64,000 bases of DNA from an uncultured delta proteobacterium (GCA_963815115.1 CAWFFN010000012.1:1-64000); one strand, 5' to 3'; counted from the stretch's first letter, positions 33,114-64,000 are shown. Notes: generated from the sequence alone by a model not told the origin. Translations and numbers: made by a program.

Positions 33114-33446
33114 TCACGCCGCCAGCCGCCGGTGGCGAAGATTCAGGTCGAGCGTTTCGCGGACGACCGAGGGATCGAGGTCGAGCACCGCGCAGACGTG
33201 CCGGAAGGTGAAGACCCGCGACGGCGGCTCGTCGGAGGCGATCCAGTCTTGCGTCTTCGAGAGGAGGTCCCGCTCGTCGCGGCTCCTCGCCCGCTCGGGA
33301 TGGCAATGCACCGAGCACGCGTCGTCCAGCACGGCCGCCATCAGCCGCTGCTCCGGCGACCGGGAGGTCGCGTGCATCGTCGTCGAGAGTCGTTCGTGCA
33401 GGGCGTCCACGGGGTCACGCGGCGTGGCGGCATGCGGCGATCTCAT
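33114..33446 (-). CDS. Small conserved-looking hypothetical protein (110 aa)
   Basis: PEQRLMAAVLDDA...DWIAS...FTFRHVCAVLDLDPSVVR; sigma54 motif directly upstream. Confidence 0.7.
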   Translation of the reverse strand: MRSPHAATPRDPVDALHERLSTTMHATSRSPEQRLMAAVLDDACSVHCHPERARSRDERDLLSKTQDWIASDEPPSRVFTFRHVCAVLDLDPSVVRETLDLNLRHRRLAA

Positions 33447-33459
33447 GCTGAGCCCTTCG

Positions 33460-33475
33460 AGCAAGACCGGGGCCA
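33460..33475 (-). promoter_or_regulatory. sigma54 -24/-12 promoter
   Basis: TGGCCCCGGTCTTGCT (GG-N10-GC); the -12 C is 15 nt from ATG 33446. Confidence 0.75.
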
Positions 33476-33615
33476 GATGCTCGTGCGAGAATGTGGCCGG
33501 GACACCGCGCGAGACCATTCGAAAGTTGGGAATCGCCGGCCGCTGGATTCTCGAGGACGACAAAGGCTCAGGGGGTTGCCGGCCGACGATGTCGAACGCG
33601 ATTGCTGCACCACAC

Positions 33616-34014
33616 TCAGGTGGACGCATGCAGCTCGTGCACCAGCGTGTGAAGCAGCTCGTAGTCGAACGGCTTGGACAGGACGACGAGAAACGGGCGG
33701 GCAGCCGCCTCCGCGTCGATGGCGTGCGTCCGGTAGGCGGTCACCAGGACGATCGGCACGCCCGGGCGTGCGGCATGGAACCGGTCGGCGAACGCAACGC
33801 CGTTCTCTCCCGGCATCTCGTAGTCCGTGATGAGCAGCGTGGTGTCGAGGAGCGGCCCCTCTTGGGGGACCTCCCCCGGAAAGGCATAGGCAAACACCTC
33901 GTGACCATCGTCACCCAGCGCCCCGGCGAGGCCCAGGCGAAGGGACGGGTCATCCTCGACCAGGAGGATCGGCAGCTCGCTGCACCTGGGGAGGGGAGGC
34001 GGGGAGTTCGACAC
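33616..34014 (-). CDS. Single-domain response regulator (start uncertain)
   Basis: ILLVEDD, LLITDYEMPGENG, LVTAY, LSKPFD. Confidence 0.88.
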   Translation of the reverse strand: MSNSPPPLPRCSELPILLVEDDPSLRLGLAGALGDDGHEVFAYAFPGEVPQEGPLLDTTLLITDYEMPGENGVAFADRFHAARPGVPIVLVTAYRTHAIDAEAAARPFLVVLSKPFDYELLHTLVHELHAST

Positions 34015-36133
34015 GGAAGGCCGTTCCACCTCCCACGACGCGTGCAAGATCGATACCTCCGCCGTGAGCCTGGACGATCTGCTTGGCGATCGCCAATCCG
34101 AGCCCCGTCCCCTCGGGTTTCGTCGTCTCGAAGAGGCCGAAGGGCCGCAGATGGTCGGGGAATCCGGGTCCGGTGTCCGTCACGGTGAATCGCACTTTCT
34201 CGCGGGTGGGAAACTCGACCGACATTCTGATCTCTCCGGGGCCCTGACCGATCGCCTCCAGTGCATTCTTGAGGAGATTGTCGAAAACACGACGCAGCTT
34301 GTCGACGTCGGCGGTGATGGGTGCGATCGTCGAGCTCAGGTGGCCGACGAGTGCGATGCCGCGATGCTGCGCGTCGGGCCGCCAGGCCGCCAGGGACTGC
34401 TCCAGGAAGGCGGGCAGCTCGACGGTGCTCAGCTCCAGCCGCTGCTCGCGCGCGAAGCTCTTGAAGTCGCGAATCATGCCGTCGAGCCGCCGCGTGGTCT
34501 GGGTCAGTTGTTCGATGGCGTCACGCACGCTGCCGAGGGGCTGGTCCGGATCCCGCTCCAGCCGACGGGCGATGCGTTGCGTGAGCATCGAGAGGCCGGC
34601 CAGGGGATTGCCGATGTCGTGGACGATGCGCGCGGAGAGCGCGCCGATGTCCGCCAGGCGCTCGCGCTGGCGAGCGAGCGACTCGGCCTGCCGCAGCTCC
34701 TCCTCGATCTCCTTGCGCATCACGAACTCGCCGATCTGCTGGCTCAGGGCGTCGAAGAGGCCCAGAAGCGCGCGGCCCGGCGCCCGGAGAGCCGAGCTGA
34801 AGCAGACCACCGCGCCGATCACCCCTTCGCGGCTCCGCACCGGGAAGCCGAAGCCGCTCGTGACATGCGTCCCCAACCCGGGTCGCAGCGATCGCCTGGC
34901 AGCGGGATCATTGCCGAGATCGAGCACGTACTCGGGCTTGCCGCTGGCCCAGATGCGGCCGGGAAGCCATTCGCCCCGGACCAGAGTAATCGCGGGAGCG
35001 AGGGCCGTCTGGGCCCCCGACGACAGGGCGGCAGCATGCCACGAGCCGTGGCGGAGCAGGACCGAGTCTCGACGATCGACGAGCCACAGCTCGCTCGCCT
35101 CCAACCCGAGGCGCTCGCAGATGGCGCGGAGCAGCTCGGGCGCGGTGTCCTCCAGCGTGTCGGAGCCGGTCGTGATTCGTGTCACCCCGTACTGGATCGC
35201 CGTGTACTGCTCGGCCTGCCATCGTTCGATCGCTTCGCCCACGATGTGGGCGATCGCCTGGAGGAAGAGCGTATCGTCGGTGGAGAAGGTGCGGTGGTGC
35301 ACGGTGTGGGCGTCGAGCACCCCGTAGGGCCGCTCGAGGAGCGCGATCATGGTGCTGAGGCCCGACACGACCCCGTGCTCGCGGAGAAGCGGGGAGCCCT
35401 CGAAGCGCGTCTCGGTGCGGAGTTCGTCGACCACGACCGGCGTCCTGGTGAGCAGCGTGTAGCCCGCCTGGGAATCCGCTCCCGCGGGAACCAGCGCGCT
35501 CCCGACCACCCTGTCCGTCCAGCCCACGCCGGCGCGGACCAGGAGCGCCGCCTCGTCGGGCAGCAGCTCGGATATCTTGCAGAACTCGACGTCGAGGGTA
35601 CGGGCGACCAGCTCGACCGCCTTCTGGAGGAGGACGTCGAGATCGCTGCCGAGCGCGGCGATTCCCAGCTCGGCGACCGCCTCCTGCTGGCGCACGCGGT
35701 CATGCAGCGTGGCTTCCATACGCGCGCGCTCGCTGACGTCGCGGATGATTGCCGAGTAGCAGACCGTGTCGCCCACCCGTGCTTCCGACACGGACAGCTC
35801 GATGGGAAACGTCTCGCCGCTCTTGCGTCGGGCTTCGACGTGCCGAATGCGGCCGATCGCCTTGGCCTCGCCGGTGTCCCGGTAGTTCGTGAGGAACCGG
35901 TCGTGCTGCTCGCGGTAAGGCGAGGGCATGAGCATCGCGACGTTCTGCTGCAGCACCTCGTCGGCCCGGTAGCCGAAGATCGCCTCCGCGCCGCGATTGA
36001 ACAGCGTGACCCGGCCGCGTGGATCGATGCTGATGATGGCATCCTGCGCGCTGTCGAGCACCGCTTGCCAGCGCGTCGCCTCCAGCTCGAGGAGACGCAG
36101 GGCACGGGTAGCACTCGAGTCCTCGAGAGTCAT
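33950..36133 (-). CDS. FixL-like heme-PAS + GAF + GAF histidine kinase
   Basis: PAS LMPSPYREQHDRFLTNYRDTGEAKAIGRIRHVEARRKSGETFP, with His and Arg at positions matching the FixL heme ligand and distal Arg; H-box VHDIGNPL; NLLKNALEA, DTGPG, GTGLGL. Confidence 0.9.
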   Translation of the reverse strand: MTLEDSSATRALRLLELEATRWQAVLDSAQDAIISIDPRGRVTLFNRGAEAIFGYRADEVLQQNVAMLMPSPYREQHDRFLTNYRDTGEAKAIGRIRHVEARRKSGETFPIELSVSEARVGDTVCYSAIIRDVSERARMEATLHDRVRQQEAVAELGIAALGSDLDVLLQKAVELVARTLDVEFCKISELLPDEAALLVRAGVGWTDRVVGSALVPAGADSQAGYTLLTRTPVVVDELRTETRFEGSPLLREHGVVSGLSTMIALLERPYGVLDAHTVHHRTFSTDDTLFLQAIAHIVGEAIERWQAEQYTAIQYGVTRITTGSDTLEDTAPELLRAICERLGLEASELWLVDRRDSVLLRHGSWHAAALSSGAQTALAPAITLVRGEWLPGRIWASGKPEYVLDLGNDPAARRSLRPGLGTHVTSGFGFPVRSREGVIGAVVCFSSALRAPGRALLGLFDALSQQIGEFVMRKEIEEELRQAESLARQRERLADIGALSARIVHDIGNPLAGLSMLTQRIARRLERDPDQPLGSVRDAIEQLTQTTRRLDGMIRDFKSFAREQRLELSTVELPAFLEQSLAAWRPDAQHRGIALVGHLSSTIAPITADVDKLRRVFDNLLKNALEAIGQGPGEIRMSVEFPTREKVRFTVTDTGPGFPDHLRPFGLFETTKPEGTGLGLAIAKQIVQAHGGGIDLARVVGGGTAFRVELPASPPQVQRAADPPGRG

Positions 36134-36332
36134 CGGTGACCAGGTGGCGACGAAGCCGGCGCTACCATGCCCTCGCACGGACGGTCAAGATTGCCACTGG
36201 CGCCGCCCGATCCCGCTGTCGACGGGGTCGACCCGCAGGCCGAAAAGGCGGCTCCGCTATCACGGACCGGAATCCTCCCACGGATGGTTCCGACATCCGG
36301 GAAAGGGAACGAGGCGTCGTCGTCATCTCGCC

Positions 36333-36348
36333 TGGCCGGCGGCTTGCT
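36333..36348 (+). promoter_or_regulatory. sigma54 -24/-12 promoter for the usp-bEBP-globin kinase operon
   Basis: TGGCCGGCGGCTTGCT; palindrome TTCCGA-N4-CGGGAA at 36288-36303. Confidence 0.72.
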
Positions 36349-36387: not shown

Positions 36388-36867
36388 ATGCCTGGAGGCC
36401 TCTTCCGTCACATTCTCGTCCCTCACGACTTCTCCGGCCAGGCGACGGTTGCGCTGAAGACGGCGGCCCAGCTCGCCCAGCAGCAGGGGGGAAAGCTCAC
36501 GGTTCTCTACGTCCTGGTGCCCTTCTACCTGCCGGCCGACGTGCCGTTCGGCATGCCGGCACCAGGCGACCTGATTCCCGAGCAACGACGCACGCTCGAG
36601 AGGCTGGTGACCAAGACTCTGGGCGCCGCGCGCCCGCCGGTGACGATCCGCGTCGACATCGGGGACGCGGCCCAGCGCATCCTCGACGCGGCTCGCGGAA
36701 CCGACAGCATCGTCATGGCGACGTCGGGGCGCACTGGCGTGGCTCACTTTCTCATCGGGAGCGTCGCGGAGAAGGTGGTCCGACACGCCCCGGTACCCGT
36801 GCTCACCATCCGGGTGCCCATCTCCAAGCGTCAATCCAGACGCAGGAAGATTGGCGCGGCTTGTTAG
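36388..36867 (+). CDS. Universal stress protein
   Basis: HILVPHDFS, IVMATSGRTG..LIGSVAEKVVRHAPVPVLTI. Confidence 0.95.
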   Translation: MPGGLFRHILVPHDFSGQATVALKTAAQLAQQQGGKLTVLYVLVPFYLPADVPFGMPAPGDLIPEQRRTLERLVTKTLGAARPPVTIRVDIGDAAQRILDAARGTDSIVMATSGRTGVAHFLIGSVAEKVVRHAPVPVLTIRVPISKRQSRRRKIGAAC

Positions 36868-36897: not shown

Positions 36898-38225
<1,328 letters not shown>

Positions 38226-38251
<26 letters not shown>

Positions 38252-39542
38252 CGGTCCTCCGCGACCACCGCTGCTCCGCGAGCTGACCGGCCTCGACGCC
38301 GGACAGCAGGCCGAGAGGCTGGCGTACTTCGACATCGGTCCGGCCGACCGGCAGCTCCTGCACGATCTCGCGCCCCTTGCCCGGCAAACCGTCGACGGGA
38401 TCGTCGCGGAGTTCTACGACCACCTGCTCCGATTCCCCGAGCTCGCGCGGTTGCTGCACGAGGAGCCGGGACGGCTCGAGCGGCTCGAGGCGGCCCAGCG
38501 CGCGTACTTCCTGGGCCTCACCGAAGGGCGCTTCGACGAGGACTACTTCGAGACGCGACTTCGCGTGGGAGACGCTCACCAGCGAATCGGTCTCCCTCCG
38601 GCGTGGTATCTCGGCGGCTTCGCGCTCTACCTGCGCCTGTCGTTGCGGGCGCTGATCCGGGAGATCGGCGAAGGCGAGCGGCTGCTGCCGGTCCTCGAGG
38701 CTCTGATCAAGGCGATCTTCCTCGACGTCTCGCTGGCCATGAACACCTACATCTACGGCGGCTTCGTGCAGCGCGAGATGGCGAGCGAGCTGGAGCGCGC
38801 GGCGCAGGTGGCCGAGGAGGCGCTGCGTGCCCACGCCAAGGTCGAGCAGGCGAGGGACGAACTGAGCCGAATGGTGGTACACGATCTGAAGAACCCCGTG
38901 AGCGGGATCGCGATGCTGACCCAGCTCGCGCTCCGCAAGGGTCCGGACCTTCCCGAGGCGCACCGCGGCTATCTCCGCCAGATCGACCGCACCTGCAGCG
39001 AGATGATGCGGCTCATCCAGAACCTCCTCGAGATCGCGAAGATCGAGGAGGAAAGGATGCCCGTCCTGCCCGAGCCGGTGTCGCTGGCCGAGCTCGCGGG
39101 CGAGGTCGTGGAGGAATATGCCGTCGTCGAGCAGGGCCAGCAGGCGGTCCGAACCAACGTGCGGCGCGACGTGCCGCCAGCGTTCGCGGACCGCTGGCTC
39201 CTGCGCCGGGTACTGTCCAACCTGGTGGTCAACGCCATGCGGCACGGCGGCAGCCGCGACGTGCGGGTGGACGCGGCCGAGGGGCCGCAACCGGGAGAGG
39301 TCACCCTGCTCGTCGCCGACTCGGGTCACGGCATCGCGCTCGAGGATCAGGCGCGCATCTTCGAGAAGTTCCCGGGCGGGGGGCGGTCGGCGGTCGACGA
39401 CCCGGCCACGGACCCGGGGCTCGGGCTGGCATTCTGCAAGCTCGCGGTCGAGCTCATGGGCGGTCGGATCGCGCTCACCAGCCGCCCCGGAGAGACGGTG
39501 TTCGTGGTCACGCTGCCGGCCCGCGATCCCGCAGCCCCCTGA
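38226..39542 (+). CDS. Globin-coupled (protoglobin-domain) sensor histidine kinase
   Basis: IVAEFYDHL..F...RLEAAQRAYF...YFETRLRVGDAHQRIGLPPAWYLG sensor-globin pattern; VHDLKNP; NLVVNAMRH; DSGHG; GLGL. Confidence 0.9.
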
Positions 39543-39646
39543 GGCCGCCTCGCCCGGAGCGCCGGACGGATTCCGATTCCTGAGAAGGAAGCTGCCACGG
39601 CCGCCGCGACGTTCGGAATTCGCCTCGTGCTGCCGTGCTCCTTGCG

Positions 39647-39662
39647 TGGCAAGGTATTTGCC
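39647..39662 (+). promoter_or_regulatory. sigma54 -24/-12 promoter
   Basis: TGGCAAGGTATTTGCC; -12 C is 14 nt from ATG 39675; palindrome TTCCGA-N4-TGAGAA at 39571-39586. Confidence 0.8.
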
Positions 39663-39674: not shown

Positions 39675-40097
39675 ATGCGAGTACGCCAGTGGATGAAGCT
39701 TCCCGTGATCAGCGTGAAGCCGCGCGATTCGGTGGCCCGGGCCCGCGCGGTCATGGAGGAGCATCGGATCAACCAGCTGCCGGTGCTCGAGGGCGCACGC
39801 CTCGCCGGGATCGTCACCGATCGTGACCTCCGCGACGCCTTCCCCTCCCTGGCCCAGAGCATGGACCTCGCGTCGCGGGAGCGCGCGGCGCCGGATGAGG
39901 TGCCGGTCGAGGACGTCATGACCCGCGACGTCCTCACCGTCGATCCGGAGACCAGCCTCGCCGAGGCGGCCCGCGTGTTGCGCCGGGAACGCATCGGGGC
40001 GCTGCCCGTCGTCAGCGGTGGCCACCTGGTGGGCGTGCTCGCGCGGAGCGACCTGCTCGAGGCTCTCGTGCAACTGCTCGACGACGATCGGGAGTAG
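39675..40097 (+). CDS. CBS domain pair protein
   Basis: MRVRQWM..VISV, INQLPV..GIVTDRDL, VEDVMTRDV, IGALPVV..GVL.RSDLL. Confidence 0.92.
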   Translation: MRVRQWMKLPVISVKPRDSVARARAVMEEHRINQLPVLEGARLAGIVTDRDLRDAFPSLAQSMDLASRERAAPDEVPVEDVMTRDVLTVDPETSLAEAARVLRRERIGALPVVSGGHLVGVLARSDLLEALVQLLDDDRE

Positions 40098-40114: not shown

Positions 40115-40984
40115 TCAGCGCGGCTTCCGCTCCGGCTCCGACCGCAGGTACTCGACGATGGCCTCGACCTCCGACTCGTCGAGGACGGGCGCGAAGTGTG
40201 GCATGTGCGGCTTCTTCTCGTCCAGCATGTGCCAGATGGCGGTCTCCAGAACCTGGCGGTCGACGGCCGAGAAGTAGGCGGCGTCGAACACCACGTGCGG
40301 CCGGCGAATCCCGACCGAGAGCGTCTCGGGCGGGTGCCCGTCGTCGCCATGACATGGAGCGCAGTAGCGACGATAGGTCAGGAACCCTGGCGAGAGCACA
40401 CGCACGAAGGTCACCAGATCTCGCTCCTGGTCCCGGGTCAGTGCTTCGGCGAGCGGCGGCATTCCCCCATGACCGCGGTGCACGACCGCAAGGATGGTCG
40501 CATCGTCCAATCGCTGCTGCAGGGCGGGGCTGGCGAGGTCGAGCGTCCGGTCGGCCGTCTCGCCGAAGGGACCGTGGCAACGCTCGCAGTGCGCGGCATA
40601 CGGCGCCGTTCCCCGGCGCGCGGCCTTCCAGTCGACGGTGGGCAGTCGGCGCAGATGGGTCTCGAGGGCGTCCAGCTCGCGCAGGCGCGCACGCAGCGCC
40701 GCCGGGTCGAGCGGCAGGGCAAGGGCCCGCCCTTCACGGATGCGGCGCACCATGGCGGCGGTGTCGTAGCGGCCGAGCGCCGGGTCGCGCAGATTGCGCG
40801 GACGCTCGGCGAAGAGATCCGCGTCGGGGCCGTCGCCGCGACCGTCGGCGCCGTGGCAGGGAGCGCAGTGATGGAGAAAGAGCTGCGCGCCATCCGGAGG
40901 CGCCTCCTTCGCAGTCGCCGCGTGCGACCCCGCGAGGAGTGTCGCCATCACCACGGCCACGAGCAATCCCTCCGACCGTGGCAT
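40115..40984 (-). CDS. Periplasmic triheme c-type cytochrome
   Basis: Signal peptide; three CxxCH motifs (CAPCH, CERCH, CAPCH); GMP/HMP distal-Met-like motifs. Confidence 0.88.
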   Translation of the reverse strand: MPRSEGLLVAVVMATLLAGSHAATAKEAPPDGAQLFLHHCAPCHGADGRGDGPDADLFAERPRNLRDPALGRYDTAAMVRRIREGRALALPLDPAALRARLRELDALETHLRRLPTVDWKAARRGTAPYAAHCERCHGPFGETADRTLDLASPALQQRLDDATILAVVHRGHGGMPPLAEALTRDQERDLVTFVRVLSPGFLTYRRYCAPCHGDDGHPPETLSVGIRRPHVVFDAAYFSAVDRQVLETAIWHMLDEKKPHMPHFAPVLDESEVEAIVEYLRSEPERKPR

Positions 40985-40992: not shown

Positions 40993-41008
40993 AGCACGTC
41001 ACGTGCCA
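40993..41008 (-). promoter_or_regulatory. sigma54 -24/-12 promoter
   Basis: TGGCACGTGACGTGCT; -12 C is 10 nt from ATG 40984. Confidence 0.75.
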
Positions 41009-41094
41009 TTGATCCGGCGCCTGCGGCGAGACGGGAATTCGCACGCGTCGGAAAATCTCCCGACCGGGATCGCGCGATTCCGGGAATCGCTTCC

Positions 41095-41110
41095 TGGCAC
41101 GGCACTTGGA
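41095..41110 (+). promoter_or_regulatory. sigma54-like promoter (GG instead of GC at -12)
   Basis: TGGCACGGCACTTGGA, 15 nt from ATG 41124; palindromes TTCGCA-N4-TCGGAA (41038-41053) and GCGATTCC-G-GGAATCGC (41074-41090) upstream. Confidence 0.65.
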
Positions 41111-41123: not shown

Positions 41124-41570
41124 ATGTTGATCCGCGATCTGATGCAGCGTGAGGTGGCGACGCTCGGGATCAACGATACCCTGGGCCTCGCCGACGACGT
41201 CATGCAGCTCGGCCGCATCCGCCACCTTCCCGTGCTGTCCAACGGGGTCGTGGTCGGGATCGTGTCGCAGCGCGATCTCTATCGTTCGGCGGTCTCTTCC
41301 ATGCTCCAGATGCCACGCGCGACGGAGCGCGAGTGGCTCGGCAAGATTCCCGTGCGCAGCGCGATGTCGTCGAACGTGGTCACGGTTGCGCCCGGAGCCA
41401 CGGTTCACCAGGCCGTCGACCTCATGCTGGCGCACCGGATCGGTTGTCTACCCGTGGTCGAGCGCGGCCAGCTGGTCGGACTCGTGAGCGAGACGGATTG
41501 CCTGCGCCATCTCGCACACCTCCTGGGCATCGCGGAGCAGAAGGCCGCCCTGCCGGAGCTCTCGCAGTAG
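41124..41570 (+). CDS. CBS domain pair protein
   Basis: IRDLMQREV, IRHLPV..GIVSQRDL, IGCLPVV..GLVSETD. Confidence 0.92.
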   Translation: MLIRDLMQREVATLGINDTLGLADDVMQLGRIRHLPVLSNGVVVGIVSQRDLYRSAVSSMLQMPRATEREWLGKIPVRSAMSSNVVTVAPGATVHQAVDLMLAHRIGCLPVVERGQLVGLVSETDCLRHLAHLLGIAEQKAALPELSQ

Positions 41571-43949: not shown

Positions 43950-43965
43950 TGGCGGGTCGGTTGCT
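43950..43965 (+). promoter_or_regulatory. sigma54 -24/-12 promoter
   Basis: TGGCGGGTCGGTTGCT; palindrome TTCCGA-N4-TAGGAA at 43895-43910. Confidence 0.72.
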
Positions 43966-53376: not shown

Positions 53377-53523
53377 GGTGGCCCGCGTCGGCGCACTCTA
53401 TACCATATACCATTCGCGAATCGTCTCGAACACGAAGAGAGCCCGTGTGGTGTGGCCGTCGGCTGCCCTCCTTGACCCGACTCGGACCGTACGGGGATAA
53501 GCTCACGGAGTGGTACGGCATAG

Positions 53524-56220: not shown

Positions 56221-57255
56221 TCACCGGGCGTCGCGCCGTGCCATCAGCTCGAGCAGGTCGACGCAGCGCGTGGCGTACCCCGCCTCGTTGTCGTACCAGC
56301 TCACCACCTTGAAGAAGCGGCGGTTGAGCTGGATGCCCGCAGCGGAGTCGAAGATGCTGCTCCGCCGGTCGCCGACGAAGTCGCTCGACACCACCTGCTC
56401 GTCCGTGTAGCCGAGGATGCCCCGCATCGGCCCCTCGGCCGCTCCCCGCATGGCGGCGTTGATCTCGGCCAGATCGGTGTCGCGCGCGCTCCGGAAGGTG
56501 AGGTCCACGACCGACACGGTCGCCGTCGGAACGCGCAACGCCATGCCCGTCAGACGCCCCTTGAGCGCCGGGATGCACAGCGTGACCGCCTTGGCGGCGC
56601 CGGTGCTCGCCGGGATGATGTTCAGGTAGGCGTTCCGCCCGCCCCGCCAGTCCTTCTTGCTCGGTCCGTCCTGCGTGGGCTGCGTCGGCGTGACTGCGTG
56701 GACCGTCGTCATGAGGCCTTCCTCGAGCCCGACGCTCTCGTGGAGCACCTTTGCCACCGGCGCGAGGCAGTTGGTCGTACAGCTGGCGTTGCTGATGACG
56801 CCGTGCTTCGCAGGGTCGTAGGCGTCGTCGTTGACTCCCAGGCAGACGGTGGGCACCTGGGCCGGGTCGCTCTTGGTGGGCGCCGAGATGACGACCCGCT
56901 TGGCTCCCGCCTTCAGATGGCCGCTCGCCTTCTCGAGATCGGTGAAGAGCCCGGTCGATTCGAGCACGTAGGCCACTCCCTCGCTCTTCCACGGCACCTC
57001 GGCCGGATCTCGAACCGAGAAGACGCGGGTCTTCCGTCCGTCGACCGCGAAGCCGTCACCGGTGACCGTGATCTCCGCCGGCCTGCCGGCGAGTCTGAAC
57101 GGCCCTTGCATGGTGTCGTGGCCCAGCAGGTAGGCCAGGTTGTCTGCGGGGACCAGATCGTTGACCGCCGCGACCTCGAGGCCCCGTTCGCTCGCGATGC
57201 GGTGGACCAGGCGCCCGATGCGCCCGAAGCCGTTGATGCCGATACGGATCGCCAT
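56221..57255 (-). CDS. gap: Type I glyceraldehyde-3-phosphate dehydrogenase
   Basis: [38 protein letters not shown]. Confidence 0.97.
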
Positions 57256-57272
57256 GATGCTCTCCTTCCTAC

Positions 57273-57950
57273 CTATGCCGGCGTGGGGGCGCGCAGACCG
57301 CCGGCCGCCTCCCTGCGCGCGAAGAACCACTGCTTCACCACCTCGACCGCGACGAGGTAGACGGCCGTCATCGCCGCGATGATGGCGTAGAGCCCGATGG
57401 GCGGCTGCACGAACCCGAACGCCCGCCCGATCGGCGTGAGCGGCAGAAGCGCCGCGATCGCCACGACCGCGAGCGAGGTCGCCGCCAACCACGGACTCGG
57501 GATGCTCCGCCACGGGCGGCCGCGCGTGCGGATGACGAAGATCACGAGGATCTGGGTCGCCATCGACTCGATGAACCACCCGGTCTGGAACAGCGCCTCG
57601 TGCGCGTGCAGCCAGAGGATCAGGAGGGCGAAGGTCGCGAAGTCGAAGACCGAGCTCACCGGACCGATCGTCCACATGAAGTCGCGCACGAACCGCATGT
57701 CCCACTGCCGCGGGCGGGCGACCTCGCCCTCGTCCACCTGGTCCATGGGGATCGGCACCTCGGAGACGTCGTAGAGCATGTTGTTGAGCAGGATCTGCAC
57801 GGGCAGCATGGGCAGGAAGGGCAGGAAGACCGCGGCGGCGGCCATGCTGAACATGTTCCCGAAGTTGGAGCGCGCGTCGAGATCCGCGAGGGTGCGCCCG
57901 AGCGGCGTGCACCACCAGGCGTCTTCCGGCTCGGGGAGCGCGTCGGCCAT
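57273..57950 (-). pseudogene. mgtA: Mg2+-type P-type ATPase with an in-frame internal deletion (27 N-terminal aa fused to the C-terminal TM domain)
   Basis: [20 protein letters not shown]|[52 protein letters not shown]; TGES and DKTGT motifs absent. Confidence 0.85.
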
Positions 57951-58029
57951 CGCGTCCTCGCCCTGGCCAGCCCCGAGACGGCTCCAGCGGCCCGGCCGGT
58001 GTCGAGGCCGGGTCGCGCTGGCGCCGGCG

Positions 58030-59493
58030 TCAGCCGCCACCTGGCACCGCCGCGCCGGCGGCCGCAGGTTCCGGCGCGTGGCTCGCGGCATCTCGCAGCA
58101 ACGCGAACTCCGCGTCGACCGCGTCCACCAGCTCGTGGAGATCGGGGACGGCATCCCAGTCGGCGTTGAATCCCCACTCCACGCGGCCATCGTAGCTGAA
58201 CAGCGCGACTCCGAGCGCCTGGTTCGGGAAGAGGGGGACCAGGGGATGGCAGGCGACCATGCGCGCGCCCTCGACGTAGACCGGAAACTGCGGACCCGGC
58301 ACGTTCGTGACCACCAGGTTGTAGGGCTGCGCACGCGCCGCAAGCCGGGCGAACTGGGTAAGCAACGTCGTGAAGGTGCGATCGCTCAGCTCCTCCAGCG
58401 TCTGCATCCCGAGTGCCTGCTGCGATTGCTTCGCCGCGCGCGTCTCGGCGACCACGCGCTCCAGCCGCCGGCAGGGGTCGCGCTCGTCGAGCGGCAGGCG
58501 GGTCACCAGCATCGCCACCCGGTTTCCCAGCTCCCGCCGGTCGGCATCGCTACGAACGTTCACGGGCAGCATGGCGCGGAAGTCCATCCCGTCGACGGAG
58601 ATGCCGCGCCGGCGCAGGAAGCGCCGGAGCGCTCCCGACAGGACGGCCAGGACGACGTCGTTCACGGTGCCGCCGAGGCGCGCGCGGATGGCGCGCATCT
58701 CGGCCAGCTCCATGGTGGTCCAGTCGAACCGCCGGTGGGGCCCGATCTCGACGTTGAACGGCGTCGGCGACGAGGCGGAGACGCCGGCGCCGACGGCCTC
58801 GGCGATCGCGGTCAGGGCGCCCGCCGCGCGCGCCAGCGTGGCGCGGGGCGCGCGCACCGTCTCGCTCGTGGTCGCGAGCACGCTCAGCGGGGCCACGCCG
58901 CGATGAGAGAGCTCGTCCATGAGCAGCCGGAAGCCGCCGGGCGCCGGGCGGGGCAGCCAGCGCGGTGGCGGCTCCGCGAGGGCCGGATCGGGCTCGGGGC
59001 TCGGGCGCATGACGGAGGCCATCAGCTCGACGCTGCCCACGCCGTCGATCATGCAGTGGTGCACCTTCGTTATGATGGCGAATCGCCCCTCGTCGAGCCC
59101 CTCGACCACCCACATCTCCCAGAGCGGCTTCCCGCGATCGAGCTGCTGGGACATCAGGCGGCCGGCGAGCCGTTTGAGCTGCCGCTCGTCGCCCGGCCGC
59201 GGCAGATGGGTGTGGCGCACATGGTAGGCGAGGTTGAAGTGGGCGTCATCCACCCACACGGGATGGTCGAACAGCGGCACCCGCGCGATGCGCTGGCGGT
59301 AGCGCGGCATGCGATGGAGCCCGGCCTCCATGAGCCCGCGCACCCGCTCGATCTCGACGCCGCCCTCCCCGGTGCCGAGCGGCCCGGGCTCGAAGATCGC
59401 GACCGAGCCGATGTGCATGTGGCTGCTGGGATCCTCGAGCGCGAGAAAGCTCGCGTCCAGGGCCGAGAGGCGATCTGCATGTGTGTACGGCAT
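58030..59493 (-). CDS. Wax ester synthase/diacylglycerol acyltransferase (WS/DGAT)
   Basis: RLSALDASFL, LDRGKPLWE, HHCMIDG, TVNDVVL, TNVPGP. Confidence 0.96.
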   Translation of the reverse strand: MPYTHADRLSALDASFLALEDPSSHMHIGSVAIFEPGPLGTGEGGVEIERVRGLMEAGLHRMPRYRQRIARVPLFDHPVWVDDAHFNLAYHVRHTHLPRPGDERQLKRLAGRLMSQQLDRGKPLWEMWVVEGLDEGRFAIITKVHHCMIDGVGSVELMASVMRPSPEPDPALAEPPPRWLPRPAPGGFRLLMDELSHRGVAPLSVLATTSETVRAPRATLARAAGALTAIAEAVGAGVSASSPTPFNVEIGPHRRFDWTTMELAEMRAIRARLGGTVNDVVLAVLSGALRRFLRRRGISVDGMDFRAMLPVNVRSDADRRELGNRVAMLVTRLPLDERDPCRRLERVVAETRAAKQSQQALGMQTLEELSDRTFTTLLTQFARLAARAQPYNLVVTNVPGPQFPVYVEGARMVACHPLVPLFPNQALGVALFSYDGRVEWGFNADWDAVPDLHELVDAVDAEFALLRDAASHAPEPAAAGAAVPGGG

Positions 59494-59502: not shown

Positions 59503-59518
59503 AGCACGCGGCATGCCC
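59503..59518 (-). promoter_or_regulatory. sigma54 -24/-12 promoter
   Basis: GGGCATGCCGCGTGCT; -12 C is 11 nt from ATG 59493. Confidence 0.65.
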
Positions 59519-59614
59519 CCCGGCGGGAGCCCATGGACGAGAATCGACCGCGTGCCCGTTCTCAGTCCTCGGAATGGGATGCCCCGGACGTTCGCAGCGT
59601 CAACGCGGCGGCCA

Positions 59615-59630
59615 TGGCACGGTGCCTGCT
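59615..59630 (+). promoter_or_regulatory. sigma54 -24/-12 promoter
   Basis: TGGCACGGTGCCTGCT, 20 nt from ATG 59649; palindrome TTCTCA-N4-TCGGAA at 59559-59574, midway between the divergent promoters. Confidence 0.75.
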
Positions 59631-59648: not shown

Positions 59649-61325
59649 ATGGCCCTCGATCACGAGACGCTGGACGCGAGCATCGCGGCCCTTCGCGAGT
59701 TCGCGTCGCGCAGGCTCCCTGACGGGATCCTCCTCGATCTCGATGCCCGCGACGAGTTTCCGGGCGATCTGATCCGGGCGATGTACGGTCCGGAGCTGGG
59801 CATCCACCTCTTCTTCATTCCCGAAAACCATCACGGCATGGGGGCCAGCGCGTTCGATCTCTCCCGTATCTGTGAAGAGCTGGCCCGCATCGACCTCGGA
59901 ATCGCGACCGGTGTCCTGGCAACCTTCCTCGGCAGCGAGCCGCTCCGCGTCGGCGGTACGCCGGAGCAGCAGGCCCGCTGGATGACCCGCATCGCCGACG
60001 AGGGCCTGTTGATGGCCTATGCCGCGACCGAGCCGGCGGCGGGCAGCGACCTGGCAGCGCTCCGCAGCACTGCGGCGCGGGTCGAGCGGGACGGCGTCGT
60101 GGTCGGCTACCGGATCACGGGCAGCAAGCAGTGGATCAGCAACGGCGGGGTCGCCGATCTCTACTGCGTCCTCGCCAGCGCGCCTGGCGGTCCGTCATGG
60201 TTCGTGGTCGAGCGCGGTGTCGATGGGCTGGCGCAGGGCAAGCCGGAGGACAAGCACGGCATCCGCGCCAGCAATACCGCCGCGCTCACCTTCGAGGACG
60301 TCTTCGTCGACGCGGACCGGCTGATCGGAGGCGTGGAGGGGCAGGGGCTGCTCCAGGCCCAGGCGGTGTTCGGCTACACCCGGCTGATGGTGGCCGCTTT
60401 CGGACTGGGTGCCGGGTGGGCGGCGCTCGACCGCGCGATTCCCTACTCGACGCAGCGGGTCCAGGCCGGCAGCCCGCTCAGCGAGAAGCAGGGCTATACC
60501 CACAAGCTCATCGTGCCGCACGTGGTCCGCCTGGAGGCGGCACGCGCCTACATCGAGGAGGTCGCCACCCGCCTTGACGCCGGCGGCGGCACGCTCATTA
60601 CAGAGGGTGCCATCGCCAAGTATCTCGCCACCGAGGCCGGTAACGCAGCGGCGGATGCCTCCATCCAGGCGCTCGGCGGCTATGGCTATACCCGCGAGTA
60701 TGTGGTCGAGAAGATCAAGCGCGACGTGCGCATCACCACAATCTACGAAGGCACCTCCGAGATCATGGAGATGACCATCGGCCGCGACCGCTGGCAGGAG
60801 CATCTGAAGACGCGCGGTGAACACTATCATCGCGCGGGCCGCGATCTGGAGGCCCTGCACGGCCGGCAGCCGGCGGTGGGCGCCGGCATGGCGGCGCTCG
60901 CGCTCCACGCCCTCGCCGAGGTCCTCGAGCGGGCGCGGCTGGCCCGCCTCACCCGCCACCAGCACGTCCTGCTGCGCCTGGGCGAGCTCATCGCTCACGC
61001 CGAGTGCTGCGCGAGTGCCGCGGGCCGGGCCGCGGCCGCGGCCGCGGGGACCCTCGACCCCCGTGCGCACGTCCGCTTCGACGCCGCCACGCAGGCCGCG
61101 ATCGCCCGGATCTACGCCCGGGAGACGGCGCTCAGGATCGCGAGCGACGGCCTCCGCCTGGTCTGCGGCGCGAGTCCGAACGGCGCCGCCGAGGCCGGTC
61201 CGCTCGCCGCCGCGCTCCGGCTGCCGACGATCCACGCCGCCCAGGCAGGGCTGCTGGTCGATCTCGGTCTGGTCGCGGATTCGCTCTACGGGCGGGGCGG
61301 CGTGCCGGCCCAGGCAACCGCCTGA
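59649..61325 (+). CDS. Acyl-CoA dehydrogenase with C-terminal extension
   Basis: [50 protein letters not shown]. Confidence 0.93.
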
Positions 61326-61345
61326 CGGAAAGGCGGGGAGGATCG

Positions 61346-64000
61346 ATGGACGACACGGCTCACCGCGCCATCGCCGTCGTGGGGCTCGGCGCGATCCTCC
61401 CGGACGCCCCCAGCGTCGCGGCGTTCTGGCAGAATCTCTGCGACGGCCGCTACAGCATCGGGGCGGTCCCGGAAGGTCGCTGGGACCCGGGCCTGTACTA
61501 CGATCCCGATCCCGCCGTTCCCGACAAGACCTACTCGAAGATCGGCGGCTGGGTGCGCGAGGCGCCGTGGGCCCCCGTCGAGTGGAAGCTGCCCATCCCT
61601 CCGCGGGTCAGCGACGCCATGGACGAGGGCCAGAAGTGGGCCATCGCCTGCACCCGCCAGGCTCTGGACGATCTGGCCGAGTCGGGGCACGGCCTCGATC
61701 CCGAGCGCACGGCGGTGGTGCTCGGCAACGCCATGGCGGGGGAGAAGCACTACCTCACGGTGTTGCGCATCCAGTTCCCGGAGTTTGCCGACGAGCTGGC
61801 GAAGGCGCCGAGCTTCGGCGCGCTGCCTCGCGCGGCGCGCGACGCCATCCTGCGCGAGCTCCACGCCGGGGTCGCGCACCGGCTCCCGGAGATCACCGAG
61901 GACACCATGCCGGGCGAGCTCGCCAACTGCATCGCCGGGCGGATCGCCAACCTGTTCAACTTCCGCGGCCCGAACTACGTGGTCGATGCGGCCTGTGCGT
62001 CCGCGCTCGCCGCCATCAGCGCCGCCGCCGAGGGGCTCATCGAGGGCGAGTACGACGCCGTCGTCGCCGGCGGCATCGATCGCAACATGGGCGCGTCGTC
62101 GTTCACCAAGTTCTGCAAGATCGGTGCGCTCTCCGCGACGGGCACGCGGCCCTACGCCGACGGCGCGGACGGCTTCGTCATGGGTGAAGGCGCGGCGGTC
62201 TTCGTGCTGAAGCGGCTCGCCGACGCCGAGCGTGCGGGCAACCGCGTCTATGCGGTCATCCGCGGCCTCGGCGGCTCGAGCGACGGCAAGGGCAAGGGCA
62301 TCACTGCGCCGAATCCGGTCGGACAGCGTCTGTCCATCGAGCGCGCCTGGCGCAATGCCGGACTCGCCCCGGCGACGGCGACCTACGTCGAGGGGCACGG
62401 CACCTCCACCCGAGTCGGCGACCTCGTCGAGGTGCAGAGCCTGAGCGAGGTGTTCGCGGCGGCGGGAGCGGCGCCGGGGACGATCGCGCTCGGCTCGGTG
62501 AAGTCGAACATCGGCCACCTGAAGGCCGCCGCCGGCGCGGCCGGGCTGCTCAAGACGGTCCTCGCCCTGCATCACGAGATGCTGCCGCCGAGCCTGCACT
62601 GCGAACGTCCGAACCCCGGCATCGACTTCGCGGCTTCGCCGTTCCGTGTGAACACCGCGGGGCGCCCGTGGGAGGTCCGGAGCGACGAGGTCCGCCGCGC
62701 CGGGATCAGCGCCTTCGGGTTCGGGGGCACCAACTTCCACGCCGTCGTGGAGCAGTTCGTCCCCGGGCGACTCGACGGCACGAGTCGCCGGAGTCGCGTG
62801 GTCAGCGCCGGCGTGCCGGCGGCGCCCCCGGATGCCGCGATGCCCAGGCCTCCGCTGCGCGGAGCGCTGGTGCTGGGCGCGCCGTCGGTGGCGGCGCTCG
62901 CCGAGCGCGTGCGCACGGTCGCCGGCGAGGCCGGTGCCGGCGTCGCGCCGGCGCCCGCACCGCCGGAGGAGGTCGACCTGCGCCAGCCCGAGCGCCTCGC
63001 GATCGACTACGGCGACGCGGCCGAGCTCGCCGACCGGGCGGCCAGGGCACTCGACGCCCTCGCCAGCGATGCGCCCGCGGCCTGGAAGGCGCTCCGCGCC
63101 CAGGGGATCTTCCGCGGCCACGGTGCCGCGCCCAAGGTCGCCTTTCTCTATACCGGGCAGGGCTCGCAGTACGTGAACATGCTGAAGGGGCTGCGCGCGG
63201 CCGAGCCGATCGTCGCCGACACCTTCGCGCTCGCCGACCGCGTGATGAGCCCGCTGCTGGGCCGGCCGCTCACCGATTACATCTTCGCCGCCGAAGACGC
63301 CGAAAGCATCGCGAGCGCCGAGGAGGCGCTCAAGCAGACAGCGGTGACGCAACCCGCCGTGCTGGCAGCCGACGCCGCGCTCACGCGCCTGCTCGCTGCC
63401 TACGGCATCGTGCCCGATCTGGTGATGGGACACAGCCTCGGCGAGTACGGCGCACTGGTCGCGGCGGGTGCCTTGCCGTTCGAGGATGCCCTCGAGGCGG
63501 TGAGCGCGCGCGGCCGCGAGATGACGAGCCTCACGATCGAGGACTGCGGTGCGATGGCCGCCGTGCTGGCACCCCTGGACGAGGTGGAGCGCATCCTCGG
63601 AGGCGTCGAGGGGTACGTCGAGATCGCGAACCTGAACAGCACCAAGCAGTGCGTGATCGGCGGCGCGACGGCGGCCGTCGAGCGCGCGATCGCCGCGGTG
63701 CAGGCCGCGGAGTACACGGCCATCCCGCTGCCGGTGAGCCACGCCTTCCACACCCGCATCGTGGCGCCGGCGAGCGAGCCGCTGCGCCTCGTGCTCGGGC
63801 GGCTCCGGCTCCAGTCGCCGACGCTGCCCATCGTTGCCAACGTGAGCGGCGAGTTCTACCCCATGGGCCCCGGGGTGGCGGCCGAGATGGTCGACATCCT
63901 CGGCCGCCAGGTGGCCTCGCCGGTCCAGTTCGTGAAGGGGCTGGAGACGCTGTATGCGGCCGGCGCGCGCGTCTTCGTCGAGGTCGGCCCCAAGCGCGCG
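61346..64000 (+). CDS. Type I polyketide/PUFA-synthase-like megasynthase (KS-AT..., runs off the window)
   Basis: Open frame from ATG 61346 (absent from the ORF track because it has no stop): KS DAACASAL, EGHGTST, KSNIGHLK; AT YTGQGSQY, GHSLG, VSHAFH. Confidence 0.94.
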   Translation, partial: MDDTAHRAIAVVGLGAILPDAPSVAAFWQNLCDGRYSIGAVPEGRWDPGLYYDPDPAVPDKTYSKIGGWVREAPWAPVEWKLPIPPRVSDAMDEGQKWAIACTRQALDDLAESGHGLDPERTAVVLGNAMAGEKHYLTVLRIQFPEFADELAKAPSFGALPRAARDAILRELHAGVAHRLPEITEDTMPGELANCIAGRIANLFNFRGPNYVVDAACASALAAISAAAEGLIEGEYDAVVAGGIDRNMGASSFTKFCKIGALSATGTRPYADGADGFVMGEGAAVFVLKRLADAERAGNRVYAVIRGLGGSSDGKGKGITAPNPVGQRLSIERAWRNAGLAPATATYVEGHGTSTRVGDLVEVQSLSEVFAAAGAAPGTIALGSVKSNIGHLKAAAGAAGLLKTVLALHHEMLPPSLHCERPNPGIDFAASPFRVNTAGRPWEVRSDEVRRAGISAFGFGGTNFHAVVEQFVPGRLDGTSRRSRVVSAGVPAAPPDAAMPRPPLRGALVLGAPSVAALAERVRTVAGEAGAGVAPAPAPPEEVDLRQPERLAIDYGDAAELADRAARALDALASDAPAAWKALRAQGIFRGHGAAPKVAFLYTGQGSQYVNMLKGLRAAEPIVADTFALADRVMSPLLGRPLTDYIFAAEDAESIASAEEALKQTAVTQPAVLAADAALTRLLAAYGIVPDLVMGHSLGEYGALVAAGALPFEDALEAVSARGREMTSLTIEDCGAMAAVLAPLDEVERILGGVEGYVEIANLNSTKQCVIGGATAAVERAIAAVQAAEYTAIPLPVSHAFHTRIVAPASEPLRLVLGRLRLQSPTLPIVANVSGEFYPMGPGVAAEMVDILGRQVASPVQFVKGLETLYAAGARVFVEVGPKRA

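Follow-up and report, generated by a model that had tools for sequence, protein, structure and literature searches.

A predicted sigma54 regulon with a phased upstream palindrome around a globin-coupled kinase operon in Candidatus Binatia

Genes for two predicted heme-sensor kinases and an NtrC-type activator lie among stress-protein, lipid, redox and hydrogenase genes at 33 to 64 kb of a 64,000-nucleotide sequence from an uncultured delta proteobacterium (GCA_963815115.1, CAWFFN010000012.1:1-64000). Are these genes controlled together and, if so, by what protein and in response to what signal? The window, as we call the whole 64,000-nucleotide stretch, makes up the opening 64 kb of contig C12 in a 6.89-Mb genome (G000; 12 contigs, 70% GC) that is rated at 100% completeness and 3% contamination and whose proteins have their nearest public relatives in metagenome-assembled genomes labelled Candidatus Binatia. 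Sigma54 promoters, a palindrome upstream of them, the helical phasing of the two, their conservation in relatives and their co-occurrence with the activator were all found in silico. On balance, we consider it probable that Candidatus Binatia have a sigma54-dependent low-oxygen survival regulon whose core and densest portion is formed by the 33-64 kb locus.

Sigma54 promoters and a phased palindrome

The G000 genome encodes one rpoN (Sigma54_DBD match at C9:663902, 208 bits) and has 49 Sigma54_activat matches, which we read as ~40 activator genes. GG-N10-GC sites were scored against the sigma54 consensus TGGCAC-N5-TTGCW (maximum score, 11), and a site was called promoter-like if it lay in intergenic sequence no more than 250 nt ahead of a gene in the same orientation. 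At a score of ≥10, 84 of the 159 sites genome-wide were in promoter-like intergenic positions; given that intergenic sequence makes up just 14.5% of the genome, the motif clearly has a function in this organism. At a score of ≥9, there were 216 promoter-like sites genome-wide, and 7 of these fell within the 33-64 kb locus, where ~0.97 was expected (the locus is 0.45% of the genome). Motif density, for which the original prediction had asked a comparison inside versus outside the locus, is thus higher inside it, and when 31-kb windows were slid along the genome, an equal or higher density was reached only at C7:5-45 kb (up to 13 sites) and C5:25-85 kb (up to 9 sites). A shuffle control on the window taken alone was weak, with 25 matches at ≤2 mismatches over the whole window relative to 16.2 ± 3.5 in shuffled sequences, a number as high being reached by 1 of 100 shuffles.

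Ten -24/-12 motifs had been proposed in the locus. Seven of these are strong, scoring ≥9/11 in intergenic, gene-oriented positions, whereas the other three are weaker or atypical: the site at 33475 lies in a stretch called weakly coding, the site at 59518 scores 8/11, and the site at 41095 has GG rather than GC at -12 (Table 1). When the region before the universal stress protein (USP) operon was compared by eye, GG-N10-GC was present at the equivalent place in five of six relatives. With a single rpoN, a single-copy local activator carrying GAFTGA and enriched sites, the predicted sigma54 wiring holds in silico, although within the window neither the hydrogenase operon nor the GNAT-ACS gene is preceded by a -24/-12 site.

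The upstream sequence of the USP operon was also where a TTCS-N8-SGAA palindrome first emerged, from a comparison of the window with six relatives. The strict palindrome occurs 275 times genome-wide, with 93 copies being intergenic. Up to 200 nt to either side of the 216 promoter-like sites, there are 21 copies, and 15 of these are 28 to 82 nt upstream of the -24 element, at gaps that cluster near 29, 40, 52, 61, 72 and 82 nt. A symmetrized position weight matrix (PWM) built from those 15 sites has the 16-bp consensus TTCSCA-N4-TGSGAA. Palindromes with a PWM score of ≥13 were found at a gap of 20 to 95 nt for 26 of 644 sigma54-like sites (score of ≥8) genome-wide, relative to 1 of 644 and 0 of 644 in control windows of equal size placed farther upstream and downstream, respectively; 11 of the 26 marked sites are outside the training set of the matrix. 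Within the window, 9 of the 10 sites have a palindrome at a gap of 19, 29, 39 to 41 or 60 nt (seven with a PWM score of ≥13 and two weak), and each promoter region contains exactly one palindrome above a low threshold. K-mer enrichment across seven intergenic regions was only suggestive (best P = 4e-5, uncorrected) and was replaced by this analysis of palindrome and position.

Conservation and the candidate reader of the palindrome

The local activator gene starts at 36898 and encodes REC, Sigma54_activat and AAA_lid matches (Pfam) together with the GAFTGA motif noted in the original prediction. It is single-copy, its next best match in G000 being 47% identical. In the assembly, its HTH_8 domain lies in the +1 frame after ~38115, owing to a 1-base frameshift near positions 38115 to 38117, whereas its orthologues in six Binatia relatives are 449 aa long and in a single frame. 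Short-read evidence on the window comes from three DNA runs with shallow, patchy coverage of the locus. A contig from one of these, public soil run X1 (depth of 5, covering 37976 to 38205), has one base fewer at 38117 and G>A at 38115; these changes restore the HTH frame, and the contig is otherwise identical to the window. Other genes in the assembly are also split: three activators and one USP gene lie as adjacent pieces, and the acyl-CoA dehydrogenase reading frame at 41595 to 42804 runs through several frames, with related contigs having one base fewer at 41946, 42501, 42617 and 42667. Such splits suggest residual indel errors or strain mixing. Because the relatives are in frame, the short-read contig restores the frame and other genes are split too, the activator frameshift, as judged from one low-depth contig, is probably an assembly or strain indel, and we take the activator to be functional.

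The synteny that had been put forward for checking is present in relatives. The activator-globin kinase pair is kept in eight Binatia loci that hold the activator, with a USP gene beside it in seven of the eight, and an equivalent palindrome stands before the orthologous USP-activator-kinase operon in loci L010, L012, L014 and L016. In L010, the 16-mer that follows the kinase gene is identical to the window's site at 39647. Across 11 loci of relatives, none of which contributed to the matrix, a palindrome was found at a gap of 20 to 95 nt for 19 of 231 sigma54-like sites (2 and 1 in the controls), in the same spacing classes as in G000. When the gaps from G000 and its relatives were pooled, their helical phasing was pronounced (Rayleigh P of ~3e-10 at 10.5 bp; n = 45, not all independent).

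Co-occurrence was assessed in 41 genomes, namely, G000 and 40 relatives, which are non-independent as kin and some of which are incomplete. An activator orthologue (≥60% identity) is present in 24 of the 41 and a globin domain in 17 of the 41; 16 of these 17 globin-bearing genomes also carry the activator, nearly always adjacent. A composite pattern (palindrome, 27 to 43 nt, TGGC-N8-TGC) was then counted against its reversed form as a control. The 24 genomes with the activator orthologue yielded 76 matches versus 10 for the reversed pattern, whereas the 17 genomes without it yielded 23 versus 16. Given this co-occurrence, the conservation described above, the autoregulatory position of the palindrome and the lack of a close paralogue, the local activator is the best candidate for the protein that reads the palindrome and quite likely is that protein.

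Comparison with known structures supports the view that both kinases of the window are heme-based, as had been predicted for them. Residues 35 to 159 of the 742-aa kinase form a PAS domain that matches the heme domains of Bradyrhizobium and Sinorhizobium FixL (E values of 9e-24 and 1.4e-23), the top match, 1dp6, spanning 125 residues; Escherichia coli DosP follows at 5e-14. A histidine of this PAS domain aligns with the FixL histidine that we take to be the heme ligand. None of the 64 PDB matches of this kinase is a heme-GAF domain of DosS or DosT. The globin domain of the second kinase, which is the sole globin domain in G000, matches HemAT (3e-13), AfGcHK (1e-9) and the Geobacter sensor globin (GsGCS), with the proximal histidine and distal tyrosine aligned. 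A paralogous pair of FixL-type kinase and REC-only protein is encoded at C8:557592-559127 (63% identity in PAS, 49% in REC).

Cargo, known systems and the likely signal

The regulon comprises about 25 to 30 promoters, nine or ten of which lie at 33 to 60 kb of the window; the remaining sites are at C12:76-98 kb, at both ends of C5 and scattered elsewhere (Table 1). Palindrome-bearing promoters also precede genes for a PlsC-type acyltransferase, an M50 protease with a CBS pair, two FabH-like proteins, two DUF1329 proteins, a retropepsin-like protease and open reading frames (ORFs) of unknown family. Past the end of the window, the operon that begins with acyl-CoA dehydrogenase (ACAD) continues (C12:61346-75806, locus L007) with a 2,729-aa megasynthase, an 1,853-aa single-chain (eukaryote-like) acetyl-CoA carboxylase (ACC) and a PPTase. 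Three more WS/DGAT genes are located at C12:85-94 kb, and five, one of them CBS-fused, lie within C12:58-98 kb.

The original prediction had likened the locus to the mycobacterial DosR regulon and had named H2 evolution and storage lipids as electron sinks. Once regulon members were traced outside the window, the DosR-like cargo proved broader than had been seen (Hsp20, M50-CBS, erythromycin esterase, NAPRTase, AAA_33 and WS/DGAT), albeit at the level of Pfam families only. The lipid sink likewise gained from the megasynthase, ACC, PPTase and several WS/DGAT genes, whereas the hydrogenase has no regulon signal here. In the region before its operon (53377 to 53523), neither a sigma54 site nor the regulon palindrome was found, which argues against its proposed membership in the regulon. 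This intergenic region, which the operon shares with the divergent GNAT-ACS gene, is AT-rich and contains two copies of a TGGTATA direct repeat (minus strand) and a short ATTCGCGAAT palindrome.

By best match, the hydrogenase appears to be of group 3b type, with four subunits and HycI. The best or near-best NCBIfam models for its subunits are those of the archaeal Shy/Hyd sulfhydrogenases, at scores far below the equivalog cutoffs (e.g., 239 versus 700 bits), and the top NCBIfam match of the gamma subunit is the related cytochrome-c3 hydrogenase gamma model. The top PDB matches are to sulfhydrogenase I alpha (7e-62), and a HycI maturation protease is present. The first subunit is found in 10 of 40 relatives and in one of four same-genus genomes. 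In relative G012 (locus L102, contig C35), a sigma54 site and a palindrome (PWM score of 15.4, gap of 29) stand before the homologous 3b operon; in relative G002, the homologous hydrogenase operon lacks a sigma54-palindrome pair. Since the signal is absent here but present in G012 and the operon is patchy in relatives, H2 evolution would be at most an optional, lineage-specific part of the program.

The program had also been called possibly undescribed, and "undescribed" is too strong because the principle of linking a globin kinase through an NtrC-type activator and sigma54 to CBS and USP genes has been published, together with its hypoxic context, for Myxococcus xanthus NmpRSTU. As described by McAllister et al. 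(2025; PMC11841059), this system consists of the heme-dependent protoglobin kinase NmpU, the REC protein NmpT, the hybrid kinase NmpS and the NtrC-like NmpR, which activates sigma54 promoters via paired GCGCA-N5-TGCGC sites. Its known targets are nmpU, a USP gene, the CBS operon to which nmpR belongs, a P-type ATPase grouped with cbb3 oxidase, and hemN grouped with hemerythrin; hypoxia induces one of them, and NmpR is activated under hypoxia. The same paper gives the kinase AfGcHK as active in its O2-bound form.

The Binatia system has in common with Nmp a kinase of the same protoglobin architecture, an NtrC-like regulator predicted to act on sigma54 promoters, an operon that would be autoregulated and a set of four parts, with two kinases, one REC-only protein and the activator. 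In the Nmp-type loci of Archangium and Anaeromyxobacter, CBS and USP genes border a group made up of an activator, a globin kinase, a REC-kinase and one or more REC proteins; the other Myxococcota loci compared had no globin domains. The globin of the window, however, is 32% identical to the Nmp-locus protein, and the activators are 46 to 48% identical, which is paralogue level. The window activator and the NmpR-like proteins of two Myxococcota are not reciprocal best matches, the latter matching other activators of G000 better (397 to 416 bits at C12:709 kb); the window activator scores 327 to 335 bits against its own closest paralogues. Among the 33-64 kb genes scanned with Pfam, there is no REC-HisKA hybrid kinase of the NmpS type, a FixL-type kinase being found instead, and neither the full NmpR-type site nor its GCA-N5-TGC core occurs in eight intergenic regions of the locus. 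With non-reciprocal activators, no hybrid kinase among the genes scanned and no NmpR site in the eight regions, the system is not an orthologue of NmpRSTU.

The two systems further differ in their DNA code and cargo. The Binatia palindrome occurs once per promoter and is phased, compared with two copies of GCGCA-N5-TGCGC for NmpR, and by eye the DNA-reading helices of the Binatia activator and the NmpR-like proteins differ. The Binatia cargo is far larger and centered on storage lipid, with no cbb3 oxidase or hemN among the members examined. What is new here is the activator lineage, the putative binding site, the architecture of a single phased palindrome and the large lipid-centered cargo. 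Judged from sequence, the locus thus appears to belong to a genuine sigma54 regulon that is conserved and has a cis-element defined here for the first time. It would represent a variant of a recently described type of oxygen-responsive circuit, with a cargo convergent on that of the DosR regulon.

The DosR regulon resembles the predicted Binatia one in placing a large gene set under heme-based kinases, and the families in common are USP, CBS pair (Rv2626c), Hsp20, M50 protease (Rv2625c), PRTase (Rv0571c), Rv2004c-type AAA_33, Rv2030c-type esterase, WS/DGAT and trehalose metabolism. The Mycobacterium tuberculosis genes tgs1 and pncB2 are also DosR regulon members. Here, however, an NtrC-type AAA+ activator would work with sigma54, whereas DosR is a NarL/LuxR-type regulator working with sigma70, and the sensors are a globin and a FixL-type PAS rather than the heme-GAF domains of DosS and DosT. 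No NarL/LuxR-type DosR-like regulator was found among the locus genes scanned with Pfam, and nitrate, nitroreductase and nrdZ members, unlike in DosR, were not seen among the genes examined. A review table names Rv2626c, Rv2004c, Rv0571c, Rv2625c, Rv2030c, Rv1997, Rv2005c and Rv2028c as DosR regulon members, several USPs being in the table. CBS-pair protein 2 matches Rv2626c over its full length (E = 2.4e-7), at rank 25 of 27 PDB matches, and a PDB search with the tandem USP gave no match at 1e-6. By such matches, the likeness in cargo appears to be one of families and not of orthologues.

Three other systems invite comparison. As in FixL/FixJ, the PAS domain matches FixL heme domains over their full length and a receiver gene follows the kinase gene; unlike in FixL/FixJ, two GAF domains lie between PAS and kinase core and the adjacent receiver has no DNA-binding domain, and the output of the FixL-type kinase is probably routed through a sigma54 activator and not through FixJ/FixK. 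AfGcHK of Anaeromyxobacter sp. Fw109-5 (PDB 5ohe) has the same order of sensor globin, HisKA and HATPase, with the histidine and tyrosine aligned, but it is distant (E = 1e-9, weaker than HemAT), and the kinase partner here is a co-operonic NtrC-type activator. Mycobacterium smegmatis Hyh, a group 3b hydrogenase, is activated by DosS/T-DosR according to the introduction of a 2026 preprint, and the comparison is with hypoxic H2 evolution and carbon storage in that species. Here, a four-subunit hydrogenase of 3b type is encoded near neutral-lipid synthesis genes, but it lacks a regulon signal and is patchy in relatives. In the literature searched, which lay largely outside subscription journals, no report among those listed joined globin-coupled kinases or DosR cargo with sigma54 or dealt with Binatia hypoxia, and we found none on this Binatia system.

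From the sequence, we infer as follows that the activator binds the palindrome, that the kinases control the activator, that O2 is the signal, which way the response runs and what physiology results. The activator, encoded in a conserved USP-activator-globin kinase operon, would be phosphorylated under the control of heme gas sensors, namely, the co-operonic globin kinase and the divergent FixL-type kinase with its REC-only partner. An activator dimer would occupy a single 16-bp TTCSCA-N4-TGSGAA on one helix face, 19 to 82 bp upstream of -24, and would then open sigma54 promoters, its own included. The cargo would consist of nucleotide-sensing stress proteins (USP, CBS, Hsp20 and BON), enzymes that turn over and store lipid (ACAD, ACC, megasynthase, patatin and several WS/DGAT), anaerobic-type redox enzymes (PFOR, rubrerythrin and cytochromes c) and trehalose synthesis. 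The signal would most likely be falling O2 or redox state, and the output would most likely be persistence without growth, with carbon being stored in the form of neutral lipid. It is plausible that the two kinases act reciprocally, as in Nmp, and the REC-only protein could serve as a phosphate sink.

Is low O2 the signal? The cargo favors induction by O2 limitation: PFOR and rubrerythrin, which are typical low-O2 enzymes, stand behind palindrome-bearing promoters along with Hsp20, USP, CBS and neutral-lipid genes, and G012 has its 3b hydrogenase behind the same signals. Kinases of the FixL class are active in the absence of O2. Nevertheless, the regulon and its activator could be as described and respond to another signal (the presence of O2, NO/CO, redox, starvation or desiccation), perhaps being switched on in air, a reading that we consider unlikely but deserving of weight. 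Much of the cargo, including USP, CBS, Hsp20, BON, trehalose and neutral lipid, is generic to stress and storage. The island at C7:5-40 kb contains general-stress and desiccation genes, which implies that sigma54 is broadly used for stress in G000. Moreover, the globin kinase is the conserved co-operonic partner, while the FixL-type kinase is not conserved beside it. According to PMC11841059, AfGcHK-type kinases are active with O2 bound, and a globin kinase coupled directly to the activator would then switch the regulon on in air; the Myxococcus analogue, in favor of low O2, is hypoxia-induced in the same paper. For low-O2 induction, the globin kinase would need to act mainly as a phosphatase, or the FixL-type kinase would need to provide the activating input. 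Because the AfGcHK type is active with O2 and the FixL type without it, the response to O2 could run in either direction.

Who reads the palindrome is the second point of dispute. Another enhancer-binding protein or a co-regulator might do so, with the local activator limited to its own operon or a few neighbors, although this seems improbable to us. The composite pattern does occur in genomes without the orthologue (six matches in G034, four in G039 and three in G031), and most described NtrC-type sites are paired, whereas here a single palindrome serves each promoter. However, the pattern barely exceeds its reversed control without the orthologue (23 versus 16) and far exceeds it with the orthologue (76 versus 10), the palindrome is kept before the activator's own operon in five genomes, as is typical of autoregulation, and the densest sites surround the gene of this single-copy activator. 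That there is no regulon at all, and that chance -24/-12 strings and palindromes in a GC-rich genome lie beside accidental neighbors, is a disfavored and very improbable reading: although 1 of 100 shuffles reached the window's 25 matches (16.2 expected at ≤2 mismatches), the palindrome count alone is at chance level and the k-mer test was only suggestive, chance would have to produce 26 marked sites versus 1 and 0 among 644, 19 versus 2 and 1 among 231 in relatives, the helical phasing, conservation at orthologous positions that extends to the identical L010 16-mer, and the intergenic, oriented bias of the sites.

Besides the O2-bound activity of AfGcHK, several observations weigh against a low-oxygen survival regulon read by the local activator. 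Counted without regard to position, palindromes in the window do not exceed chance (4 versus 2.8 expected), and the evidence from them is therefore positional only. In the window, no sigma54 site or palindrome accompanies the genes for the hydrogenase, GNAT-ACS and the K+ channel, and nothing obvious links the DUF1329, beta-lactamase-like and retropepsin-like members to O2. Nor does the FixL-type kinase gene lie beside the operon in those loci of relatives that were examined. The local activator would have to be the one that binds the palindrome among ~40 in the genome, the genomes used for co-occurrence are related to one another, with six pattern matches in G034 despite its lack of an orthologue, and the assembled activator gene is frameshifted, its frame being restored in one short-read contig of depth 5.

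More broadly, it is possible, albeit tentative, that the class Binatia independently built a dormancy regulon of DosR-type families under a globin/heme-PAS kinase, an NtrC-type activator and sigma54, with a lipid output and optional H2. If so, the core output under O2 limitation would be the channeling of PFOR-derived reducing power into fatty-acid and neutral-lipid synthesis by the megasynthase, the single-chain ACC and five or more WS/DGAT enzymes; this would be convergent evolution of a whole regulon rather than of a single gene, and it would provide a predictive DNA code for locating a hypoxia program in soil metagenomes. What is known of the physiology of Binatia, a widespread group of uncultured soil bacteria, comes from genomes alone. 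The rule of promoter, palindrome and spacing predicts genes that should respond together, which can be checked in oxic-to-anoxic soil metatranscriptomes. That the same dozen families occur here, under DosR and partly under NmpR, with differing regulators, suggests a modular toolkit with which aerobic soil bacteria meet a lack of O2. It also gives a functional context to USP, CBS pairs and the Rv2004c-like AAA_33, PRTase-like and erythromycin-esterase-like families. Finally, a single palindrome for two divergent sigma54 promoters is a compact enhancer design that may be useful for the study of short-range enhancer-binding proteins.

Gene content of the locus and its surroundings

Because raw ORF lists are useless at such a high GC content, genes were called with a GC3/codon-usage model trained on G000 and named by Pfam and NCBIfam. 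These calls agree with the gene content first proposed, apart from the corrections given here. The "P-type ATPase" likened to ctpF is a 225-aa ORF (57273 to 57950, minus strand) that covers no more of an MgtA-type pump than its C-terminal membrane part of ~190 residues: it matches positions 670 to 862 of an 867-position NCBIfam model, and the space upstream of it is occupied by the WS/DGAT gene. Either this ORF is what remains of a gene, or it encodes a small membrane protein that stands alone. With gaps of 79 and 17 nt, WS/DGAT, the MgtA-type fragment and GAPDH are a possible single transcription unit. The protein proposed as an APH/AAA_33 kinase does have the AAA_33 domain, whereas its N-terminal ~375 aa have no Pfam match, APH included, at an E value of ≤1; by language-model features only, the nearest Atlas clusters of this N terminus are APH-like (score of 0.97). 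Start analysis places the true start of the cytochrome c gene downstream of its promoter, and the likely start of patatin is the ATG at 44040, which is preceded by a GGAGAA ribosome site. The locus also contains a TrkA K+ channel gene (Pfam) and, divergent from the hydrogenase, the GNAT-ACS (Pat-like) gene.

Table 1. Features of the 33-64 kb locus and regulon members elsewhere in G000. Positions without a contig name are those of the window. Gaps (in nucleotides) are from the palindrome, a putative upstream activating sequence (UAS), to the -24 element.
Feature	Position	Strand	Basis or remark
110-aa ORF, no known family	33114-33446	-	No Pfam match at E ≤ 1; downstream of 33460-33475 site
REC-only response regulator, directly after FixL-type kinase	33616-34047	-	Pfam Response_reg 5e-14
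FixL-type sensor kinase, 742 aa: heme-PAS, GAF, GAF, HisKA, HATPase	33950-36178	-	Pfam
USP, first gene of core operon	36388-36867	+	Pfam Usp 2.7e-30
NtrC-type activator: REC, AAA+ with GAFTGA, HTH_8	36898-38250 (called frame 36898-38166)	+	Pfam
Globin-coupled histidine kinase: protoglobin, HisKA, HATPase	38226-39542	+	Pfam Protoglobin 7e-36
CBS-pair protein 1 (CBS1)	39693-40097	+	Pfam CBS 4e-32
Multi-heme c-type cytochrome, likely signal peptide	40115-40984	-	Pfam Cytochrome_CBB3 x3
CBS-pair protein 2 (CBS2)	41124-41570	+	Pfam CBS 1e-27
Acyl-CoA dehydrogenase reading frame, broken	41595-42804	+	Frame analysis
Patatin-like phospholipase	44040-45248	+	Pfam Patatin 1e-24
PRTase (46175-46876) and tandem-USP protein (45282-46178), two-gene unit	45282-46876	-	Pfam
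AAA_33 protein, ~560 aa, AAA_33 kinase domain C-terminal	47226-48914	+	Pfam AAA_33 3e-26
NiFe hydrogenase, group 3b type by best match: beta, gamma, delta/small, alpha/large, HycI	48861-53376	-	NCBIfam, PDB, Pfam
WS/DGAT (58030-59493), MgtA-type C-terminal fragment (57273-57950), GAPDH (56221-57255)	56221-59493	-	Pfam
ACAD and start of 2,729-aa KS-AT megasynthase	59649-64000	+	Pfam
-24/-12-like site, downstream 110-aa ORF	33460-33475	-	10/11; stretch called weakly coding
Sigma54 promoter, USP-activator-globin kinase operon	36333-36348	+	9/11; 40 nt before USP start
Sigma54 promoter, CBS1	39647-39662	+	Site scan
Sigma54 promoter, cytochrome c gene	40993-41008	-	10/11
-24/-12-like site before CBS2	41095-41110	+	-12 non-canonical TTGG (GG not GC)
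Sigma54 promoter, patatin	43950-43965	+	Site scan
Sigma54 promoter, PRTase-USP	46889-46904	-	10/11
Sigma54 promoter, AAA_33 gene	47122-47137	+	10/11
-24/-12 site before WS/DGAT, weaker	59503-59518	-	8/11
Sigma54 promoter, ACAD-megasynthase operon	59615-59630	+	10/11
UAS palindrome TTCCGACATCCGGGAA, USP operon	36288-36303	.	Gap 29
UAS palindrome, CBS1	39571-39586	.	PWM 14.6, gap 60
UAS palindrome common to divergent cytochrome c / CBS2	41038-41053	.	PWM 19.0, gaps 29 / 41
UAS palindrome, patatin	43895-43910	.	PWM 17.0, gap 39
UAS palindrome, AAA_33	47066-47081	.	PWM 13.4, gap 40
UAS palindrome, symmetric between divergent WS/DGAT / ACAD	59559-59574	.	PWM 14.6, gaps 40 / 40
Weak palindrome, PRTase-USP	46924-46939	.	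PWM 8.0, gap 19
Weak palindrome, 33475 site	33517-33532	.	PWM 6.9, gap 41
Cytochrome c, PFOR, DHO_dh-like gene, trehalose synthase TreT, one unit	C12:76329		Palindrome-bearing promoter
Beta-lactamase-like hydrolase; divergent WS/DGAT-CBS fusion	C12:95506/95623		Palindrome-bearing promoters
123-aa ORF, then rubrerythrin	C12:97706		Palindrome-bearing promoter
USP, then REC/AAA-lid gene	C5:14647		Palindrome-bearing promoter
Hsp20, CBS, BON	C5:16956		Palindrome-bearing promoter
PCMT-erythromycin esterase fusion	C5:74819		Palindrome-bearing promoter
CBS, tandem USP, NAPRTase, second AAA_33, glucoamylase, one unit	C5:1794884		Palindrome-bearing promoter
Another WS/DGAT	C9:1928456		Palindrome-bearing promoter

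Other sigma54-like sites in G000 form groups of their own. The densest island, at C7:5000-40000 (loci L001 and L002), has up to 13 sites (score of ≥9) per 31 kb, located before genes for CsbD, YflT, Ku, LigD, phasin-like and DUF748 proteins, a CBS pair, a cytochrome c and a stand-alone receiver. The island also encodes a phosphoketolase, a glycogen-debranching enzyme and two activators (C7:17682-18698 and C7:37386-38744). Since none of its sites (0 at a PWM score of ≥13) has the TTCS-N8-SGAA palindrome, this island looks like a separate sigma54 stress regulon. A second palindrome, TGCCGA-N4-TCGGCA, lies upstream of 7 of the 216 promoter-like sites, relative to 2 of 1,163 control regions; it is found at C5:1771117-1771150, C8:33394, C9:1862375 and other positions, is absent from the locus of the window, and probably marks the regulon of another activator. 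At C12:84709(-)/84797(+) (locus L008), divergent sigma54-like sites flank a degenerate palindrome (PWM score of 9.5, gaps of 30 and 41) in a layout like that of the cytochrome c/CBS2 pair, here before a pyruvate-kinase-like gene and a methyltransferase gene.

Sequence from the beginning of C7 is repeated in contig C6, where the palindrome sites are identical and have corresponding offsets, and the same 280-aa USP frame is present both at C5:12460 and at C5:1780453; these repeats of the C7 start and the C5 ends are either assembly duplicates or real repeats near contig ends. Upstream of the locus, the window at 25119 to 33080 encodes a 1,003-aa regulator of the STAND type with an OmpR-type winged helix and AAA_16, an ECF sigma factor with an NrsF-type anti-sigma factor, GreA, and a cyclic-nucleotide-binding domain fused to a pyridine-nucleotide disulfide oxidoreductase.

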